From a virus (Duplodnaviria; Heunggongvirae; Uroviricota; Caudoviricetes): a stretch of DNA of 11,684 bases. Both the position numbers and the translations under genes were made by a program. The number at the start of each line of letters is the position of its first letter. The stretch's first letter is position 1. Below the pieces are notes generated by a model. It was not told where the DNA came from, searched no databases, and saw only the letters and a list, made by a program, of their open reading frames with translations. This document shows positions 1 through 7,009 of the stretch, in pieces. The stretch lies in IMG/VR virus record IMGVR_UViG_2585427784_000006, one strand, 5' to 3'.

Positions 1-591
1 ATGTCTCGAATTTTTGCTTACTGTCGGATATCAACGCTGGATCAGACCACCGAAAATCAACGCCGGGAAATCGAAAGTGCAGGTTTTAAAATCAAACCTC
101 AGCAAATAATCGAAGAACACATTAGCGGCTCAGCAGCAACCAGTGAGCGTCCTGGTTTTAACCGGTTGCTTGCTCGCCTGAAATGTGGTGATCAATTGAT
201 TGTGACAAAACTGGATCGCCTTGGTTGTAATGCAATGGATATCAGGAAAACAGTGGAACAACTGACCGAAACAGGTATCAGAGTGCATTGCTTAGCATTG
301 GCTGGCATTGACCTGACCAGTCCAACAGGAAAAATGATGATGCAAGTAATTTCAGCAGTCGCTGAATTTGAACGAGACCTTTTACTTGAACGCACTCATT
401 CCGGGATAGTAAGAGCCCGCGGCGCAGGGAAACGTTTTGGTCGACCACCTGTGTTAAATGAAGAACAGAAACAGGTGGTATTCGAACGAATTAAGTCAGG
501 TGTAAGTATAAGTGCCATTGCCCGGGAATTCAAAACCTCGCGGCAAACCATTTTAAGAGCCAAAGCAAAACTTCAGACACCTGACATATAA
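1..591 (+). CDS. pinQ: Serine recombinase / DNA invertase of the Pin/Gin/Hin family
   Basis: 196-aa ORF, ATG at 1-3, TAA at 589-591. N-terminal catalytic motif YCRISTLDQ (serine nucleophile) and C-terminal helix-turn-helix region typical of small serine invertases. Lies next to a tail fibre assembly gene. Pin paralogues (pinE, pinR, pinQ) are near identical, so the Q suffix rests on the surrounding Qin-type genes. Confidence 0.9.
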
Positions 592-688: not shown

Positions 689-1264
689 CTACGGCAGTGC
701 TGGCCATTCAATATCCTGTGCAGTTGACGTATCAACACGGTTCAGCAACACCCGATACTTTTTCCAGGCTTCCAGCAATGAGGTTTCTTCCTCCGTTGCG
801 ATTTCCAGATCTACAGCATCCTGAAGTGGCGCAATATGCTCACTGGCTACCTGCATCAGGCTGTTTTTTGTTTCTTCCGCCTCTCGGATCCGGAACAGTT
901 TTTCTGCTTCTGCATCTTTCACCCAGGCTGTGCCGTTCCACTTCTGAAACTCCCCTTCCGGCGATAACCAGGTAACATTTTCCGGTAACGGACCGAGTTC
1001 AGAAATAAATAACGCGTCCCCTGACGCTACGTCATAAACCGTTTTACCCCGATGGTCTTCATCGAGATGCCACGATGCCTTATCACTGTTGAAAACAGCC
1101 ACAAAGCCAGCAGGAATATCTGGTGGTGCAATATCGGTACTGTTTGCTGGCAGACCTGTATGAGGCGGAATATATGCGTCACCTTCACCAATAAATTCAT
1201 TAGTTCCGGCCAGCAGATTATAAATTTTTATGGTCCGTGGTTGTTCACTCATTCTGAATGCCAT
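689..1264 (-). CDS. tfaQ: Tail fibre assembly protein (Tfa family)
   Basis: Track ORF 689..1270 begins at a TTG; first ATG is at 1262-1264, giving 191 aa starting [18 protein letters not shown], which I recognise as lambdoid Tfa. Its start overlaps the end of a short upstream stf-like frame, as at stf/tfa junctions. Confidence 0.85.
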
Positions 1265-1325
1265 TATCAAGGCTGTTCAGATTGCGGATGGCATTCTCAA
1301 GCCCCTTCATCCCACACCTCTTTAC
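1245..1325 (-). pseudogene. Possible 3'-terminal remnant of a side tail fibre (stf) gene
   Basis: A 26-codon open frame ([26 protein letters not shown], stop TGA at 1245-1247) ends 15 nt inside tfa, the overlap expected of stf/tfa. Upstream it is closed by a stop at 1326-1328, directly beside the stop of the preceding head-tail gene. Positional inference only. Confidence 0.3.
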
Positions 1326-1597
1326 TCAATAAAGATCATTGGCTTACCGTTAAAACGTTCATGCCGTGTGACCGTCCATTGTTGTCCGTCATAAACAACG
1401 CGATCCCCGCGCCGTGGGCGGTATCCCGAAGAAAACACCACCAGAGAGACCGCAGGTCCGGACAGAGCATTCAGCTCTGCCAGTGTTTCTCCCGGGATCA
1501 CAGTCATATCGACATCATTAATCGAGGCTGTCTTTCCCATCTTTCTGACCGTGATCGCATCCATACGCGCTGCCAGCCGGGAAAAGGGATCAGACAT
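1322..1597 (-). CDS. Putative phage head-tail joining / tail attachment protein (gpFII-like)
   Basis: 91-aa ORF, ATG at 1595-1597, overlapping the stop of the upstream gene by 8 nt (translational coupling). Contains a PRRGDRVVYDGQQWTV segment resembling the RRGD region of lambda FII from memory. Confidence 0.5.
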   Translation of the reverse strand: MSDPFSRLAARMDAITVRKMGKTASINDVDMTVIPGETLAELNALSGPAVSLVVFSSGYRPRRGDRVVYDGQQWTVTRHERFNGKPMIFIE

Positions 1598-1913
1598 TGA
1601 GTTTTACCGGCACTTCTTCTGCACTGGTTCCGGCATCTGCCCAGACAACCCCGACCAGCGGCTCAGAGCCGCTGTTAGTCAGCTGAACTTTTCCTGACTT
1701 CAGATAAACCTTCTTACCCGTTTTCATGTCATCCGTTTTCAGCTTAGGCAGCATAAACACACCTTCGGTTATGCCGTCGCCTGTTTCTCCCTGTGGAATA
1801 TCGGTCAGCGCCACCGCAAAAACATCCCCCACCTGCACCAGATCTCCGCTGCTGATGGCTGCACTGGCAACAATCGCCACCGTTTTTCCTTCTTCTACAA
1901 AATTCTTTGCCAT
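1590..1913 (-). CDS. Small phage head-associated protein (DUF2190-like)
   Basis: Track ORF 1590..1958 begins at a TTG. ATG at 1911-1913 is preceded by GGAGA and gives 107 aa starting MAKNFVEEGKTV. Gly/Val/Thr-rich; resembles the DUF2190 family usually encoded just after a major capsid gene. Confidence 0.5.
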   Translation of the reverse strand: MAKNFVEEGKTVAIVASAAISSGDLVQVGDVFAVALTDIPQGETGDGITEGVFMLPKLKTDDMKTGKKVYLKSGKVQLTNSGSEPLVGVVWADAGTSAEEVPVKLNV

Positions 1914-1999
1914 AACTGTCTCCGCACAGCCCCGTTCAGGGGCTGATTTCAGGTACAAAAAAAGCCCTTACGGGCCATCAGAGTTGTTGTCTGCGACGT

Positions 2000-3985
2000 T
2001 TACGCCGTACATTTCACCAGGCCGCGGTGATCAACTGGCGCAACACCAGCGTCAATACGCACTTTCGTTGTCACGCCATCCACACTGAAGCCCTCCATCT
2101 GATCAATATATGGCGTATCCACACCGTTGAGATAAGCCACTTCAATCGTATCGGAGCCTTTGGACGCAGCCAGGTAGAAGGTGGTCTGGCTGTTATCATC
2201 AAGACGAGGCTCTGCAATAACGGTCGCAAAATCTTTCACCGGGTTAATAATACCGGCGTTAATGTCAGCCCCCTTGACACTTGAGGAGCGAATGACCTGG
2301 TTAGCAACAGACTCCATCGCCGTCGGTACCAGTACGAACGCAGGACGAATATTCAGATGACGCTCACCCTCTTTCTGAACGCGCATCAACTGGCGGGCTT
2401 TATCCAGCGATGCCACGTCCATTGCCGCGCTCTCCAGTACGTTTGCATGTTTCGCTTTATCGAACAGACTTACATTATCTGTGGAGATTTTCGGGTTAGA
2501 CGTCAGAATGGCATAAACCAGATCGGCAATAGTGGATTTCGCCGCACGGCCCAGCTTCATCGGGACATCGGTCAGCATATTCAGATCATCATTGATAATG
2601 GCCTGACGGGTGATACTGAACAGCTCGCCATAGGTCGCCAGTGCAATAGTGGCCTGTTTATCTCCGGTGGTGACGTATTTATATTCTGCCCCTTCACGCA
2701 CCTGACGCAGAGCACTGAAGCCCCCCATACCCACACGATGGGCAATTTTAAAATCAGACAACTGACCTTTCCGCGTCCACTGTTCATAGGTTTCAGGGGC
2801 ATCTTCCCAGCCCTGCAGAATGGCTTTGTTCGCAACATCCAGCAGAATATTACCGAAGTCAGACGTACTGTGTGTGAACGCCGCACCGACCATCTGCATC
2901 GGGTTATAACTGGAAACACCAATACCACGTTCAGTCAGTGACATACGGGCATATTCACGCAGGGTCATCCCGTTGTAGACATTATCACGTTCAGTTTTTT
3001 CAAACCCGGCGCGCGCCATCAGCGCCTGGCGGATCCCGTCCCCCACAAAATTACCGTTACCGGCATAAATATGAGCCGGGGGATTTTTATTGGATGGCGT
3101 GGACTCGCGCCCCATCTCGTTCAACAGCTTTTCGCGGGCCTGCTCCAGCGAACATTCAGGATCGGCAAGACACTGAGCCTGCAACGACTGATAGCCGGTC
3201 ATGGCATCCATAGCTGGCTGAAAATATTCACCGCAGTGCGGACATGGCCAGTACCAGCGGCGGCGGTCACCACGATTGTAAAGGGAAAGAATACCAGTCG
3301 TCGGTGGCGCTTCATGAGGCGACTTACGTCGCCATTTGCTGTCGCAGATGTCACGTCCCGGCGAGCTCTCCACCAGAGTCATCCCGGCGGACATAAATGT
3401 GGTGGTACGTTTTGAGGCCAGGGAGAAACCATCACCCTCGCTGTCGATATTCTCCGGAAAACGGTCGTAATCGGTTAAGGCGACAAACCGGTAATCCGAC
3501 GACGACATAATGTTGACCGAGGGCCAACCAATTTTAAGGAACGAGCCATCCCTGAACGTCTTATCATGGACATTATTGTCGTTACGACGTGGACTCATTC
3601 TTTTCTTTACCGCCGCACTGCTTCTGAACGTTCTGTCGAGGCGCTTTTTAGAATGCTCGCGGGCCTTATCTTCGGTCATCTGCACAACGAGCATGTCCGA
3701 AGGATCGCAAACGATGGTATAGACAATCCATCCATCGATCAGACCAATGGTCTTCCCTGTTCGCGCAGGACCAACAAAAATCACCGCATCGTATTCACGC
3801 GATGCCAGGCAGTTCATGGGCTCAATGATGTAGGGTGTCAGTTCAGGATCCCATGGCACCGAGTTACCAGCCCCCTTGGGAACACGCATGAATTTTTTAA
3901 CAGCCTCCGAAATCGGCATGCGACGTGGTGGGGAAAATCCTGCCGATATGTCCCTTCCCAAATTTCGGGCTGATGAAAAACCCAT
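2000..3985 (-). CDS. Terminase large subunit (lambda gpA family N-terminal ATPase); identity of the C-terminal half uncertain, possibly capsid-derived
   Basis: 661-aa ORF, ATG at 3983-3985 preceded by AGGAGG, TAA at 2000-2002. First ~290 aa align by eye with lambda gpA: Walker A-like VGPARTGKT and a WYWPCPHCGEY ... CLADPEC zinc-finger region. The remaining ~370 aa is Ala/Ser/Thr/Val-rich and looks capsid-like rather than nuclease-like. Confidence 0.7.
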   Translation of the reverse strand: MGFSSARNLGRDISAGFSPPRRMPISEAVKKFMRVPKGAGNSVPWDPELTPYIIEPMNCLASREYDAVIFVGPARTGKTIGLIDGWIVYTIVCDPSDMLVVQMTEDKAREHSKKRLDRTFRSSAAVKKRMSPRRNDNNVHDKTFRDGSFLKIGWPSVNIMSSSDYRFVALTDYDRFPENIDSEGDGFSLASKRTTTFMSAGMTLVESSPGRDICDSKWRRKSPHEAPPTTGILSLYNRGDRRRWYWPCPHCGEYFQPAMDAMTGYQSLQAQCLADPECSLEQAREKLLNEMGRESTPSNKNPPAHIYAGNGNFVGDGIRQALMARAGFEKTERDNVYNGMTLREYARMSLTERGIGVSSYNPMQMVGAAFTHSTSDFGNILLDVANKAILQGWEDAPETYEQWTRKGQLSDFKIAHRVGMGGFSALRQVREGAEYKYVTTGDKQATIALATYGELFSITRQAIINDDLNMLTDVPMKLGRAAKSTIADLVYAILTSNPKISTDNVSLFDKAKHANVLESAAMDVASLDKARQLMRVQKEGERHLNIRPAFVLVPTAMESVANQVIRSSSVKGADINAGIINPVKDFATVIAEPRLDDNSQTTFYLAASKGSDTIEVAYLNGVDTPYIDQMEGFSVDGVTTKVRIDAGVAPVDHRGLVKCTA

Positions 3986-3993
3986 TATTCCTC

Positions 3994-4521
3994 CTAGAGA
4001 CTCTCTCCTTCCTCATCAGGAATTAATTCAGCAGCACAAGCCTCGTAGGATTTTTCCTGAAGAGTGTATCGCAGGTCATCAATGGCCTGCTGTACAACGC
4101 CGACGGCCTGAGGAGTCAGGGCGCAATCGCGTTCAAGAACATCCGGAATTGTCTCCAGAACCTGGACGACAGCCTTTCTCATGGACGAATAGACGATGAC
4201 TACTTCATCAACTGGGATGAGTTTTCGCTGCTCCTTTTCCAGCTTGATCCTTTCATTTTCAGACTGGTACCAGTCCTTTCTCTCTTTCGGCTCCATACGG
4301 GATGGATCATGAACAGAGTCTGCTGCCTCATGCTTCACACTAAACAGGGCGGGCCCGACATGCTGCAGGGCGTAAACGGGGTTCCCCCTGACAGTCGCAG
4401 CCACAGGAGTGTTGGCCGCGAGGAGCCGTTTTTTTACTGTGTCCCGGTGAAGCCCAAAGGCCTCGGCGATTTTAAAAACACTCCAGTAATAAGCATCACC
4501 GATCCCGCTCACATTTGACAT
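3994..4521 (-). CDS. nohA: Terminase small subunit (lambda Nu1-like, NohA family)
   Basis: Two in-frame ATGs, at 4531-4533 and 4519-4521; the second has a GGAG at good spacing and gives MSNVSGIGDAYYWSVFKIAEAFGLHRDTVKKRL, an N-terminal HTH like Nu1. Stop TAG at 3994-3996 lies inside the RBS of the large-subunit gene. A cos site lies ~185 bp upstream. Confidence 0.8.
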   Translation of the reverse strand: MSNVSGIGDAYYWSVFKIAEAFGLHRDTVKKRLLAANTPVAATVRGNPVYALQHVGPALFSVKHEAADSVHDPSRMEPKERKDWYQSENERIKLEKEQRKLIPVDEVVIVYSSMRKAVVQVLETIPDVLERDCALTPQAVGVVQQAIDDLRYTLQEKSYEACAAELIPDEEGESL

Positions 4522-4533
4522 AAGCAACTCCAT

Positions 4534-4724
4534 CTGGCAGGTGAAAATCAGGTTTATTTATATATTTCAATTAATTGCAAACTGGTCTAATGACAGGGAG
4601 AAAAAAATATTGTACAGGTGAAAAGAGAAATAACTTTTAATTATCAATAAATTACCAAACATGCTGCCGCCGCCATGGAAATGCAAAAACTAGTCTTTTT
4701 CCGCGACGCTCCCGCCCCGTGGCA
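4534..4724. other. cos site: cosN-like core plus cosB-like TerS/IHF binding region
   Basis: Minus strand reads CGGGTCCTCCCAGTGGGGGTCCCTGCCACGGGGCGGGAGCGTCGCGG, close to the lambda cos junction as I recall it (...CGGGTCCTTTCCGGTG...TTACGGGGCGGCGACCTCGCGG). The 12-mer aligned to the lambda cohesive end is + 4706..4717. Between it and terS: IHF-consensus TATCAATAAATTA at 4642-4654 and two exact direct repeats CAGGTGAAAA at 4538-4547 and 4615-4624. Confidence 0.7.
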
Positions 4725-6162: not shown

Positions 6163-6433
6163 GATGTTACCGTAGTATGTGAGTATCCATCGAATAGATA
6201 CCAAGCAAAAAAGCTCCCGAAGGAGCCTTCATTTTCACTTTTTTAAATCCAACGACAGACGGCTGGCATTTAAGTATTGTGAAATATTATCAAATGTAAT
6301 CATCATTGATTTACAAAAGATACATTTTGCCCCGAAAGGATTCATGTCAGAAACATCAAAAGATGATGTTCTATACTGGGAACCATGACAACACGGGCAT
6401 CTAAAGTGAATATGGTTTGTAATATTGTCTACC

Positions 6434-6646
6434 TCAAAGCGCCACTACATGAACAGCGGCAGGACCTTTAGGTCCGTTCTCAATACCAAATTCAACTTCC
6501 TGATTCTCAGTTAATGTTTTGAAATCGTTGCTCTGAATTGCTGAGAAATGGACAAACACATCTTTGCTGCCATCTTTCGGCGTGATGAAACCAAAACCTT
6601 TTTCAGGGTTAAACCATTTCACTAAACCAGTCATTTTGTTAGACAT
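6434..6646 (-). CDS. cspI: Cold shock protein (CspA family)
   Basis: 70-aa [41 protein letters not shown]... with RNP1 (KGFGFI) and RNP2 (VFVHF) motifs. ATG at 6644-6646 in an AAAAGGTAATAAT-ATG context typical of cspA-family genes. Sequence matches my memory of CspI. Confidence 0.9.
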
Positions 6647-7009
6647 AATTATTACCTTTTGAAGAAATTAGCCCTTGGGCAGAATGGTCCGAAAAAAAAT
6701 ATCAGAGAGAAAAACCAACAAGGAAATCTCAAGAGGTACAAATAATAAAATTATAACAATGACTGCTTCAGATAAATTTGTAACAAACCAGAACACCATT
6801 AACGCATGATTAACCACCCATAGCAAGGATTACTTTTGTAAAGAAAAAAACAGCAATGAAAGAATAGCTTTATTTATTAATAATAACGTGTCATTCTGAT
6901 TAAGACCTTTTATCTTACCCTTAAGATTTCAGGAATTTTGGCTCATGGAAGAGTCCTTTTTATTTAAATTTTACATTCCGCGATGTAAATGTTCCGATTT
7001 AATATTACC

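Follow-up and report, generated by a model that had tools for sequence, protein, structure and literature searches.

The window, that is, the whole 11,684-nt stretch analyzed (IMGVR_UViG_2585427784_000006, Caudoviricetes), to which all window coordinates refer, was 100% identical to contig JORW01000047.1 of draft assembly GCA_000713395.1. It was collinear with a prophage bearing Qin gene names beside ydfJ (99.3% identity over 8.5 kb), and the Qin gene order was kept, namely, ydfU, quuQ/ydfT, cspF, cspB, essQ, ydfR, rrrQ, rzpQ, cspI, ynfN, and gnsB, and further on tfaQ and pinQ. Directly upstream of the prophage the source contig carries a phage integrase gene and a Zn-ADH-like gene, which we take to be rspB from the K-12 map. 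An intact prophage with the complete gene set occupies the same chromosomal site, the Qin locus, in E. coli MEI1O2-23. The ancestral order of the head genes is terS, terL (699 aa), a DUF6148 gene, the portal gene, a gene for a ClpP-protease/scaffold/capsid polyprotein (675 aa), and the decoration gene.

In the window, the place between terS and the decoration gene is taken by a single open reading frame (ORF) of 661 codons, whose product is identical to RefSeq WP_050491757.1 by exact database look-up (Table 1). The gene terS ends 8 nt upstream of it, and farther upstream lies a cosN-like stretch, ACGGGGCGGGAGCGTCGCGG, that would resemble the lambda cosN (ACG GGGCGGCGACCT CGCGG). A terminator-like hairpin follows the ORF stop codon, and in phage mEp460 a rho-independent terminator is annotated at the same position after the capsid gene. 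The readable frame, the terL ribosome-binding site, terS, and the terminator were all kept. The 91-aa gene beyond the decoration gene is labeled a minor tail protein in PHROGs and had been called head-tail joining in an earlier note made from the sequence alone.

Table 1. Features of the chimeric head gene and its surroundings in the window
Feature	Window position	Strand	Residues of the 661-aa product	Basis or remark
Serine invertase gene pinQ	1..591	+		Pfam Resolvase and HTH_7; annotation of relatives
Tail fibre assembly gene tfaQ	689..1264	-		Pfam Caudo_TAP; annotation of relatives
Deletion junction 2, ATA microhomology	1265-1267	-		L005 16871/32294
Z-like tail gene, first 15 codons, up to junction 2	1265..1310	-		BLAST blocks versus intact prophage
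91-aa gene, Gifsy-2 (PF13856), phrog_153, intact	1322..1597	-		Pfam, PHROGs
Head decoration/cement gene, DUF2190, Phage_cement_2, intact	1590..1913	-		Pfam, PHROGs, source-contig gene call
Terminator-like hairpin	1963..1976	-		Just past the ORF stop codon
Chimeric ORF terL'::'ClpP/MCP, ATG start	2000..3985	-	1-661	ORF list; Pfam and PHROG domain split
ClpP/scaffold/capsid polyprotein-derived part (parent aa 279/280-675), through stop codon	2000..3191	-		BLASTP, Pfam, DNA identity
Phage_capsid_4 domain, complete	2012-2899	-	363-658	Pfam
Linker/scaffold stretch of capsid polyprotein			266-362	
Deletion junction 1, TA in codon 265 (TAT, Tyr)	3192..3193	-		BLAST blocks abut and overlap by 2 nt; fusion compared with both parental sites
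Terminase-derived part, codons 1-264 and TA of codon 265	3192..3985	-		Identity to intact terL
First CPHC	3233-3244	-	248-251	
Walker A GPARTGKT	3749-3772	-	72-79	
Small terminase subunit gene terS, DUF1441, 175 aa, intact	3994..4521	-		Pfam E 1.7e-44, phrog_141; source-contig gene call
cosN-like sequence upstream of terS	4701..4720	-		Read from sequence

The product was split between two proteins of the head module. In Pfam, GpA_ATPase (PF05876) matched residues 40-263 (E 3.6e-73; profile positions 2-212 of 247, so that the last ~35 positions are missing), and Phage_capsid_4 (PF25209) matched residues 363-658 (E 1.1e-54; profile 7-261 of 262) together with PF10124 (E 4.1e-08). Neither GpA_nuclease (PF20454) nor the ClpP/S14 protease domain CLP_protease (PF00574) was found by Pfam in the 661 residues. 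PHROGs assigned residues 2-264 to the terminase large subunit and residues 263-661 to the protease/capsid family phrog_133 (profile positions 267-667 of 668). Terminase and capsid domain matches within the ORF far exceed chance. The earlier note had read it as a possible in-frame fusion of a gpA-type ATPase N-terminus with a capsid-like C-terminus devoid of nuclease, and the profile searches it proposed for the two parts bear this out, with the switch at residue 265.

A sequence search against solved structures found no match for the gpA part, and the C-terminal half gave a weak match to the Mu-GpT-domain capsid chains 8rkx/8rkc (E 3.5e-4). AlphaFold2 modeled the chimera with a mean pLDDT of 30.9 (20-sequence alignment), leaving the capsid part unusable; in the intact polyprotein (31 sequences) it was confident only for the ClpP domain and helices 250-305, with pLDDT <50 in residues 307-675. 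An HK97 fold of the C-terminal part is thus suggested by profile matches.

Residues 1-265 were identical to the same residues of the 699-aa intact terL of strain MEI1O2-23, and the similarity ended there. Residues 266-661 were ~99% identical to residues 280-675 of the intact 675-aa ClpP-protease/scaffold/major-capsid protein (397/403 identities in BLASTP with residues 261-661). The intact terminase has GpA_nuclease at aa 325-643 (E 1.8e-86) and a second CPHC of a zinc-ribbon-like motif ~30 residues past the first; the intact polyprotein has CLP_protease at aa 31-191 (E 2.9e-36), a domain that also matches solved ClpP structures (E 4e-20). Its first 278 residues, this domain included, are missing from the chimera. 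The gpA-like portion had earlier been extended to about residue 290, with the transition near 3090-3130; its N-terminal gpA character was right, and the switch was misplaced, as the true junction lies ~25 codons upstream and the stretch past residue 265 is the linker/scaffold of the capsid polyprotein. Of the zinc-finger region noted at CPHCG, the first CPHC was kept and the second deleted.

That the ORF is simply an intact gpA-family large terminase, the alternative raised in the earlier note, would agree with its 661 aa (near 699 aa), its good ribosome-binding site, and its position directly after terS. This reading is refuted and retains a practically negligible probability: GpA_nuclease, so strong in the intact relative, is missing, the intact terminase can be aligned over its first 265 of 699 residues rather than end to end, and the other 396 residues belong to the capsid polyprotein. 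The similar length of the chimera and its parents (699 and 675 aa) is a coincidence because both parents break at nearly the same residue number.

At the DNA level, the intact Qin-type prophage aligned to the window in two collinear blocks (99.3% and 98.5% identity) abutting at 3192/3193, which is the deletion junction that an alignment to intact relatives had been expected to locate. Between the blocks, the intact prophage has 3,803 bp (L005 11142-14944 in intact-prophage coordinates), which begin at codon 265 of terL, take in the small DUF6148 gene and then the portal gene, and end at codon 279 of the polyprotein. Their loss cost the terminase its last ATPase segment and entire nuclease domain and the polyprotein its ClpP domain, together with the two genes in between. 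The earlier suggestion that nuclease domain, portal, and protease had been deleted therefore stands, except that the capsid N-terminus was thought to be gone too and the capsid domain is complete. Strain B2 showed an equally sized gap and both exact parental junction sequences, and its intact prophage was 99.2-99.7% identical to the window. Terminase-side DNA up to 3192 was 99.2-99.3% identical to intact prophages, and the capsid-derived part was 99.0-99.9% identical to mEp460 and many E. coli prophages; from junction 1 onward, identity to mEp460 was 99% and took in the decoration gene and the 91-aa gene of the Gifsy-2 family.

At the breakpoints, the parental sequences have only the dinucleotide TA in common (terL GGCTA/CCGT and MCP CGTTA/TCAG). 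The frame is kept across the join, as 3,803 leaves a remainder of 2 on division by 3, which matches the offset of 2 between the parental frames. A homology-driven deletion was rejected, as similarity around the join was at chance level (5/20 positions, null mean 5.0). Microhomology (TA at junction 1 and ATA at junction 2), zero extra bases, and no insertion sequence (IS) at either junction fit short-homology illegitimate recombination. With a probability of about 0.9, the ORF is a remnant chimeric gene that one illegitimate-recombination deletion produced in a Qin-type lambdoid prophage of E. coli; the deletion would have struck the late operon and fused the 5' part of terL, with the frame kept, to the 3' part of the protease/capsid gene. 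No comparison made gave a result contradicting the deletion origin.

The source being a draft assembly, the junction might be an artefact of a chimeric contig, which is hardly credible: ~35 contigs (NCBI, ENA, and Logan; one of 4.7 Mb) encode proteins with the same junction, the 2 nt common to the parental sites are too few for a k-mer graph to join them, and analogous junctions are present in finished genomes. These proteins comprise six variants that, aside from two being of an N-terminally shorter 629-aa form, differ at three residues. The junction was absent from complete RefSeq E. coli genomes (0/5,426). It is real, young, and restricted to one lineage, in which sequence variation is too small for a test of selection; elsewhere, one Citrobacter-phage-like prophage comes within 3 nt of the terL265/MCP279 pair.

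It is quite unlikely that the origin had two steps, a first deletion joining terL and MCP out of frame, as in strain NH-21 or strain 573, and a small second one (242 bp relative to NH-21) restoring the frame. The deleted interval fully contains those of NH-21 (L005 11294-14851) and 573 (L005 11736-14901), and NH-21 has the same prophage arms as the window. However, intact prophages such as that of B2 were at least as similar to the window as NH-21 was (98.8-98.9%), and independent one-step deletions to the same capsid nucleotide were seen in four other prophage backgrounds.

One illegitimate event thus remains the preferred origin of the chimera, and two further deletions struck the same prophage. 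Junction 2 abuts the tfaQ ATG at 1264, where the intact prophage has 15,422 bp of tail genes, and a third deletion removed the early/regulatory region, leaving intQ directly beside a truncated ydfU in the source contig. With tail genes and early/regulatory region deleted, the prophage presumably makes no particles and is dead. The chimeric product itself would be incapable of terminase activity, given the incomplete ATPase domain, the halved Cys4 motif, and the missing nuclease domain, and equally of building capsids, since the prophage has lost its portal and maturation protease and a 265-aa foreign N-terminus replaces the protease. The likeliest status of the ORF is that of an inert remnant, a neutral pseudogene, still readable probably because the deletion happened to keep the frame and is recent. 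Readthrough of the late operon from the Q-dependent promoter could yield a predicted 73-kDa fusion protein from the terL ribosome-binding site, for which no function is required.

The Q antiterminator gene quuQ and the lysis genes were kept in this prophage. Together with the kept frame, ribosome-binding site, terS, and terminator, they make expression of the chimera possible, a point against calling it inert. So is the reuse of its capsid-side breakpoint by several independent chimeras, which may in principle reflect selection as well as a mutational hot spot.

Public data hold about 25 other chimeras of this head module that arose independently. On the capsid side, their breakpoints were concentrated on a few nucleotides (codons 111, 264-266, 279, 324, 371-375, and 423; pile-ups at L005 14439/40, 14901-04, 14943-46, 15078-81, 15221-31, and 15376/77), with the break in the window belonging to one such pile-up. 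Several terminase- or portal-side sites were also reused, among them terL codon 463 with three different partners. Microhomology at the junctions was 0-7 nt overall and 0-4 nt in most, and out-of-frame junctions used the same sites as in-frame chimeras. The pattern G-Y-T-A-Y-C, broken at TA or right beside it, fits many of the sites. In the Citrobacter-phage-like prophage, which is 61-67% divergent, terL264 was joined to MCP279 with zero microhomology.

Such recurrence bears on whether the chimera has been kept as useful; for example, its scaffold and capsid fragment, with translation beginning at the terL start, might poison head assembly in superinfecting relatives, or its ATPase stub might titrate the small terminase subunit. 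The intact frame, ribosome-binding site, terS, and terminator agree with this, as do the many independent chimeras retaining the capsid fragment from codon 279 and the Citrobacter-phage-like prophage that independently made its join within 3 nt on both sides. Even so, usefulness is very unlikely. Each chimera is rare (1-18 contigs), that of the window being found in none of the complete genomes; breaks of the others at codons 111, 265, 324, 374, and 423 define no single conserved fragment; and the out-of-frame junctions of strains 573 and NH-21 lie at or next to the same positions, a sign that the cause is to be sought in the DNA rather than in the protein. A TAG-to-CAG stop loss that lets terS read through into the capsid fragment in one chimera was rejected as a sign of selection, being a pre-existing natural polymorphism present in 14 of the 754 genomes with that terS-terL stretch uninterrupted.

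The chimera is thus an ordinary gene remnant, and yet the same breakpoints recur in unrelated prophages. Tentatively, the junction may lie on a true deletion hot spot, with a sequence- or structure-specific breakage and rejoining activity on the lambdoid late region shaping prophage decay. Candidates for the activity are illegitimate recombination mediated by topoisomerase II (gyrase) through subunit exchange, or a nuclease; selection for translated capsid fragments is a less likely explanation of the reuse. Several other possible causes found no support. No Chi site lies in L005 9700-17000, no strong local hairpin is formed at MCP279 (z = -0.9), and the IS elements of relatives lie in ydfU, outside the head genes. 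A pseudo-cosN at MCP279, GGCGGGCGT compared with cos GGCGGGAGCGT, was suggestive, statistically weak, and absent at other hot spots. The sequence TTATCAGAC presumably resembles resolvase or Hin half-sites, and the breaks fall in the wrong register for such a reading. The pix core of the Pin invertase is CCTTCTCCCAAACCAA (PMC12529663). No AAACCNNGGTTT-like site was present at the junctions, where matches were at chance level, and the breaks would fall ~10 nt from any invertase crossover point.

The RefSeq product name of the chimera, ClpP-like prohead protease/major capsid protein fusion protein, misdescribes it, as the ClpP domain is absent. The chimera and its many cousins carry misleading names, for example, terminase large subunit family protein, for what are really dead products lacking protease and nuclease, and prophage-completeness callers that count terminase or capsid matches would overrate such remnants. 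The locus is a clean, datable case of decay through few large, microhomology-poor deletions, with intact, singly deleted, and multiply deleted versions of the prophage all at one chromosomal site. No description of terminase-capsid chimeras or of their breakpoint hot spots was found in the literature searched. If a systematic survey confirms breakpoint reuse in unrelated prophages, prophage decay would not be mutationally random, and these loci would offer a natural substrate to study illegitimate recombination in E. coli.

In comparison to the intact gpA-type terminase WP_000507029.1 (699 aa), the chimera keeps Walker A, the first CPHC, and the place after the DUF1441 small-subunit gene, but lacks the ATPase end, the second CPHC, and the endonuclease domain and is not countable as a terminase. 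In comparison to the phrog_133 capsid polyprotein (WP_097423632.1, or gp05 of mEp460) of mEp460-, cdtI-, and Gifsy-2-type phages, it keeps the full Phage_capsid_4 and has a terminase fragment in place of the first 278 residues. One example of a counterpart in kind is the 670-aa WP_232379280.1 of strain PK8566 (terL1-366::MCP372-675), an in-frame join of a terL N-terminus and a capsid C-terminus with the same type of origin. Other chimeras of the head module join a terL, portal, or terS N-terminus to the capsid C-terminus, several at the capsid-side breakpoint of the window, whereas left breakpoints and prophage backgrounds differ from one chimera to the next. K-12 Qin and fuller relatives at the rspB-intQ to ydfJ locus share the flanking genes in the same order with the window. 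At the head-module position, K-12 Qin presumably has a different remnant (nohA and stfQ fragments), whereas the packaging and head module of the window is of the DUF1441/gpA/ClpP-MCP type with its own set of three deletions.

The 661-aa open reading frame (ORF) shares its strand with all neighbouring genes except pin. In it, Pfam placed GpA_ATPase at aa 40-263 (E 3.6e-73, the profile stopping at position 212 of 247) and a nearly complete Phage_capsid_4 profile at aa 363-658 (E 1.1e-54), and the same search gave no match to GpA_nuclease. With PHROGs, aa 2-264 were assigned to the terminase large subunit and aa 263-661 to the protease/capsid family phrog_133 (profile positions 267-667 of 668). 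The terminase-like N-terminus and capsid-like C-terminus proposed in the earlier note from the sequence alone were thus borne out, with the switch moved from about residue 290 to about residue 265 by these profiles and by the alignments. The HK97 fold predicted for the capsid part is supported through profile matches only, because the capsid models from both AlphaFold2 runs were unusable.

The parents of the chimera were found in the intact prophage of E. coli MEI1O2-23 (locus L005), which adjoins a truncated ydfJ, that is, the Qin site. Its genes follow the order terS (DUF1441), terminase large subunit (699 aa), DUF6148 gene, portal, ClpP-like protease/major capsid polyprotein (675 aa), DUF2190 decoration gene, a 91-aa Gifsy-2-family gene (a minor tail protein in PHROGs, previously read as a head-tail joining gene), a complete lambda-like tail set, tfaQ and pinQ. 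Chimera residues 1-265 are 100% identical to terminase residues 1-265, after which similarity stops, and residues 266-661 align to polyprotein residues 280-675 (397/403 identities over 261-661, BLASTP). The nuclease domain of the intact terminase (aa 325-643, E 1.8e-86) and the ClpP domain of the intact polyprotein (aa 31-191, E 2.9e-36), the latter part also matching solved ClpP structures, are missing from the chimera. An intact gpA-family terminase, the alternative offered in the earlier note, is refuted by the lack of the nuclease domain, by the end of identity to the 699-aa terminase at residue 265, and by the alignment of all that follows to the capsid polyprotein.

The window aligned to L005 in two collinear blocks of 99.3% and 98.5% identity sharing a two-base overlap, with 3,803 bp absent between them, which shows the deletion origin of the chimera. 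In the three-way display, with a slash at the junction, terL reads ...ACCGGCTA/CCGTAATG, the capsid gene ...GGGCGTTA/TCAG, and the chimera ...ACCGGCTA/TCAG. The sole sequence common to both ends is TA, and the junction-flanking 20 nt gave 5 matches against a null mean of 5.0, the random level. In strain B2 (locus L009) the two parental sequences are present exactly, and with them the QSLQ allele found past the junction; its gap is also 3,803 bp, with flanks 99.2% and 99.7% identical. The offset of 2 between the terL frame and that of the polyprotein is matched by 3,803 = 2 (mod 3), so that the join is in frame, an outcome expected for about one in three random deletions. Lost were terL codons 266-699 (the end of the ATPase domain, the second CPHC of the Cys4 motif, and the nuclease), the DUF6148 gene, the portal gene, and polyprotein codons 1-278 (ClpP and linker). 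The earlier interpretation, a deletion of the terminase nuclease domain, portal and protease, is therefore supported by the two blocks once its junction is corrected; the capsid N-terminus, which it counted as removed, is not among the losses, the capsid domain being intact together with about 100 residues of linker/scaffold before it.

An assembly artefact is excluded, as many independent contigs carry the junction and the parental sites overlap by just 2 nt. A two-step origin through an out-of-frame terL-MCP (major capsid protein) deletion like those of strains NH-21 and 573 is geometrically possible, since the deletion in the window encloses both of theirs, but is not favoured, the window being no nearer to these strains than to intact prophages. 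The exact chimera protein is RefSeq WP_050491757.1, and its 90% cluster, which is found on about 35 contigs including a 4.7-Mb one, comprises six variants with three residues differing, two of them an N-terminally shorter 629-aa form. The junction was present in 0/5,426 complete RefSeq E. coli genomes, 754 of which have the terS-terL allele of the window and 390 of which cover at least 80% of it. The chimera is real, recent and restricted to a small lineage. Its RefSeq product name, 'ClpP-like prohead protease/major capsid protein fusion protein', given without a ClpP domain, and that of the 91-aa Gifsy-2-family protein, 'DNA breaking-rejoining protein', are misleading.

With 100% identity, the window matches bases 2302-13985 of the locus from contig JORW01000047.1 (GCA_000713395.1), where a Zn-ADH-like gene and a phage integrase, which we take from the K-12 map to be rspB and intQ, lie directly upstream of an N-terminally truncated ydfU. 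This gene encodes 235 aa here, against about 349 aa (1,050 bp) in the intact prophage; its truncation against the integrase indicates that a third deletion took the entire early/immunity region (dic, rel, hok, and rem genes). The second deletion fused a Z-like tail gene at codon 15 to the tfaQ ATG across an ATA microhomology and took out 15,422 bp of tail genes; a 21-codon junk ORF is left at this junction. Because the early region, portal, protease, and entire tail are lost, the prophage cannot make particles. It retains the Q antiterminator, lysis cassette, csp genes, cos, terS, the decoration gene, the 91-aa gene, tfa, and pin. The sequence ACGGGGCGGGAGCGTCGCGG upstream of terS, which we liken to lambda cosN, is probably the cohesive-end site for this phage type. 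An IS009 sRNA (226.7 bits) and cspA-type thermoregulator leaders were also recorded by Rfam.

Coordinates of the chimera, its junctions and associated features
Feature	Window	Strand	Other locus
661-aa chimeric ORF (ORF list)	2000-3985	minus	
First collinear block	11684-3192		L005 2650-11141
Second collinear block	3193-1265		L005 14943-16871
Codon-279 breakpoint	3191-3193		L005 14943-14946
Second deletion junction	1265-1267		
21-codon junk ORF	1245-1310	minus	
91-aa Gifsy-2-family gene	1322-1597		
Truncated ydfU (with the abutting integrase in L006)	10977-11684		L006 (source contig) 1034-3009
cosN-like site	4701-4720	minus	
IS009 sRNA within tfaQ	723-921	minus	
Leaders upstream of cspI and cspB	6407-6792 and 9304-9696	minus	
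Codon-111 breakpoint			L005 14439/40
Codon-423 breakpoint			L005 15376/77
terL allele-type boundary			L005 11437-11450
15-nt inverted repeat			L005 11974-11988 and 13835-13849
Additional deletion, terS::MCP prophage			L013 7529-7531 (L005 16137 to 22790)
Loci with breakpoint reuse			L007, L008, L011, L012, L013, L015-L018

The chimera product would be unable to cut or package DNA or to assemble or mature a head, and the rest of the prophage appears to offer no use for it, so the chimera is most likely a neutral pseudogene whose frame stayed open fortuitously. It could be expressed, given that the RBS, terS, terminator, and quuQ are kept; a dominant-negative effect of the product on related phages is very improbable. 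The chimera is a commonplace outcome of prophage decay that bears a wrong name in RefSeq.

A protein database search with the chimera as query yielded about 25 different chimeras, each rare and each joining a terL, portal, or terS N-terminus to a capsid C-terminus. Their joins were located on the intact proteins, and for ten also on DNA; no earlier description of terminase-capsid chimeras or their breakpoint hot spots was found in the literature. The breakpoint at polyprotein codon 279 was used in the window and in at least four other backgrounds, with terL175, terL463, portal368, and the terS end as left partners. Codon 111 served two DNA-verified chimeras and a third at the protein level only, codon 423 two chimeras, and codons 264-266, 324, and 371-375 two or three each, and terL codon 463 had three different partners. 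Microhomology was merely 0-4 nt at most junctions. For 25 events, about 24 breakpoint pairs within one codon were observed versus about 2 expected under a rough null, an informal estimate of our own. Many sites match G-Y-T-A-Y-C, a motif derived after the fact, and two of the three GTTATC copies in the 6.3-kb module are breakpoints. Since the out-of-frame junction of strain 573 falls on two reused sites and the NH-21 one is 6 nt away from another, the pile-ups argue for a DNA-level cause over selection on the protein.

No Chi site, IS element, convincing hairpin, or invertase quasi-site was found as a cause of the pile-ups, and a pseudo-cos explanation gave nothing solid. In intact relatives, the codon-279 breakpoint of the capsid gene is directly preceded on its 5' side by a partial copy of the cosN-like site (GGCGGGCGT). 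The terL allele-type boundary (codon ~366; L005 versus phage mEp460, ~70% identity upstream and ~99% downstream) falls on the left breakpoint of the in-frame chimera of strain PK8566 and on one of the module's GTTATC hexamers. From terL to portal, intact relatives carry a perfect 15-nt inverted repeat, CCTGATAACACCGGA / TCCGGTGTTATCAGG (~0.02 expected by chance), which has GTTATCAG in common with the codon-279 hot spot and whose region is deleted in the window. In the prophage of the terS::MCP chimera, another deletion joins the capsid stop codon to a tail gene.

Only the reuse of breakpoints in unrelated prophages might reward further study. A relative of Citrobacter phage Chris1, a prophage whose proteins share 61-67% identity with the E. 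coli parents, has the same terL264-MCP join at codon 279, at most 3 nt off on both sides and with no microhomology.
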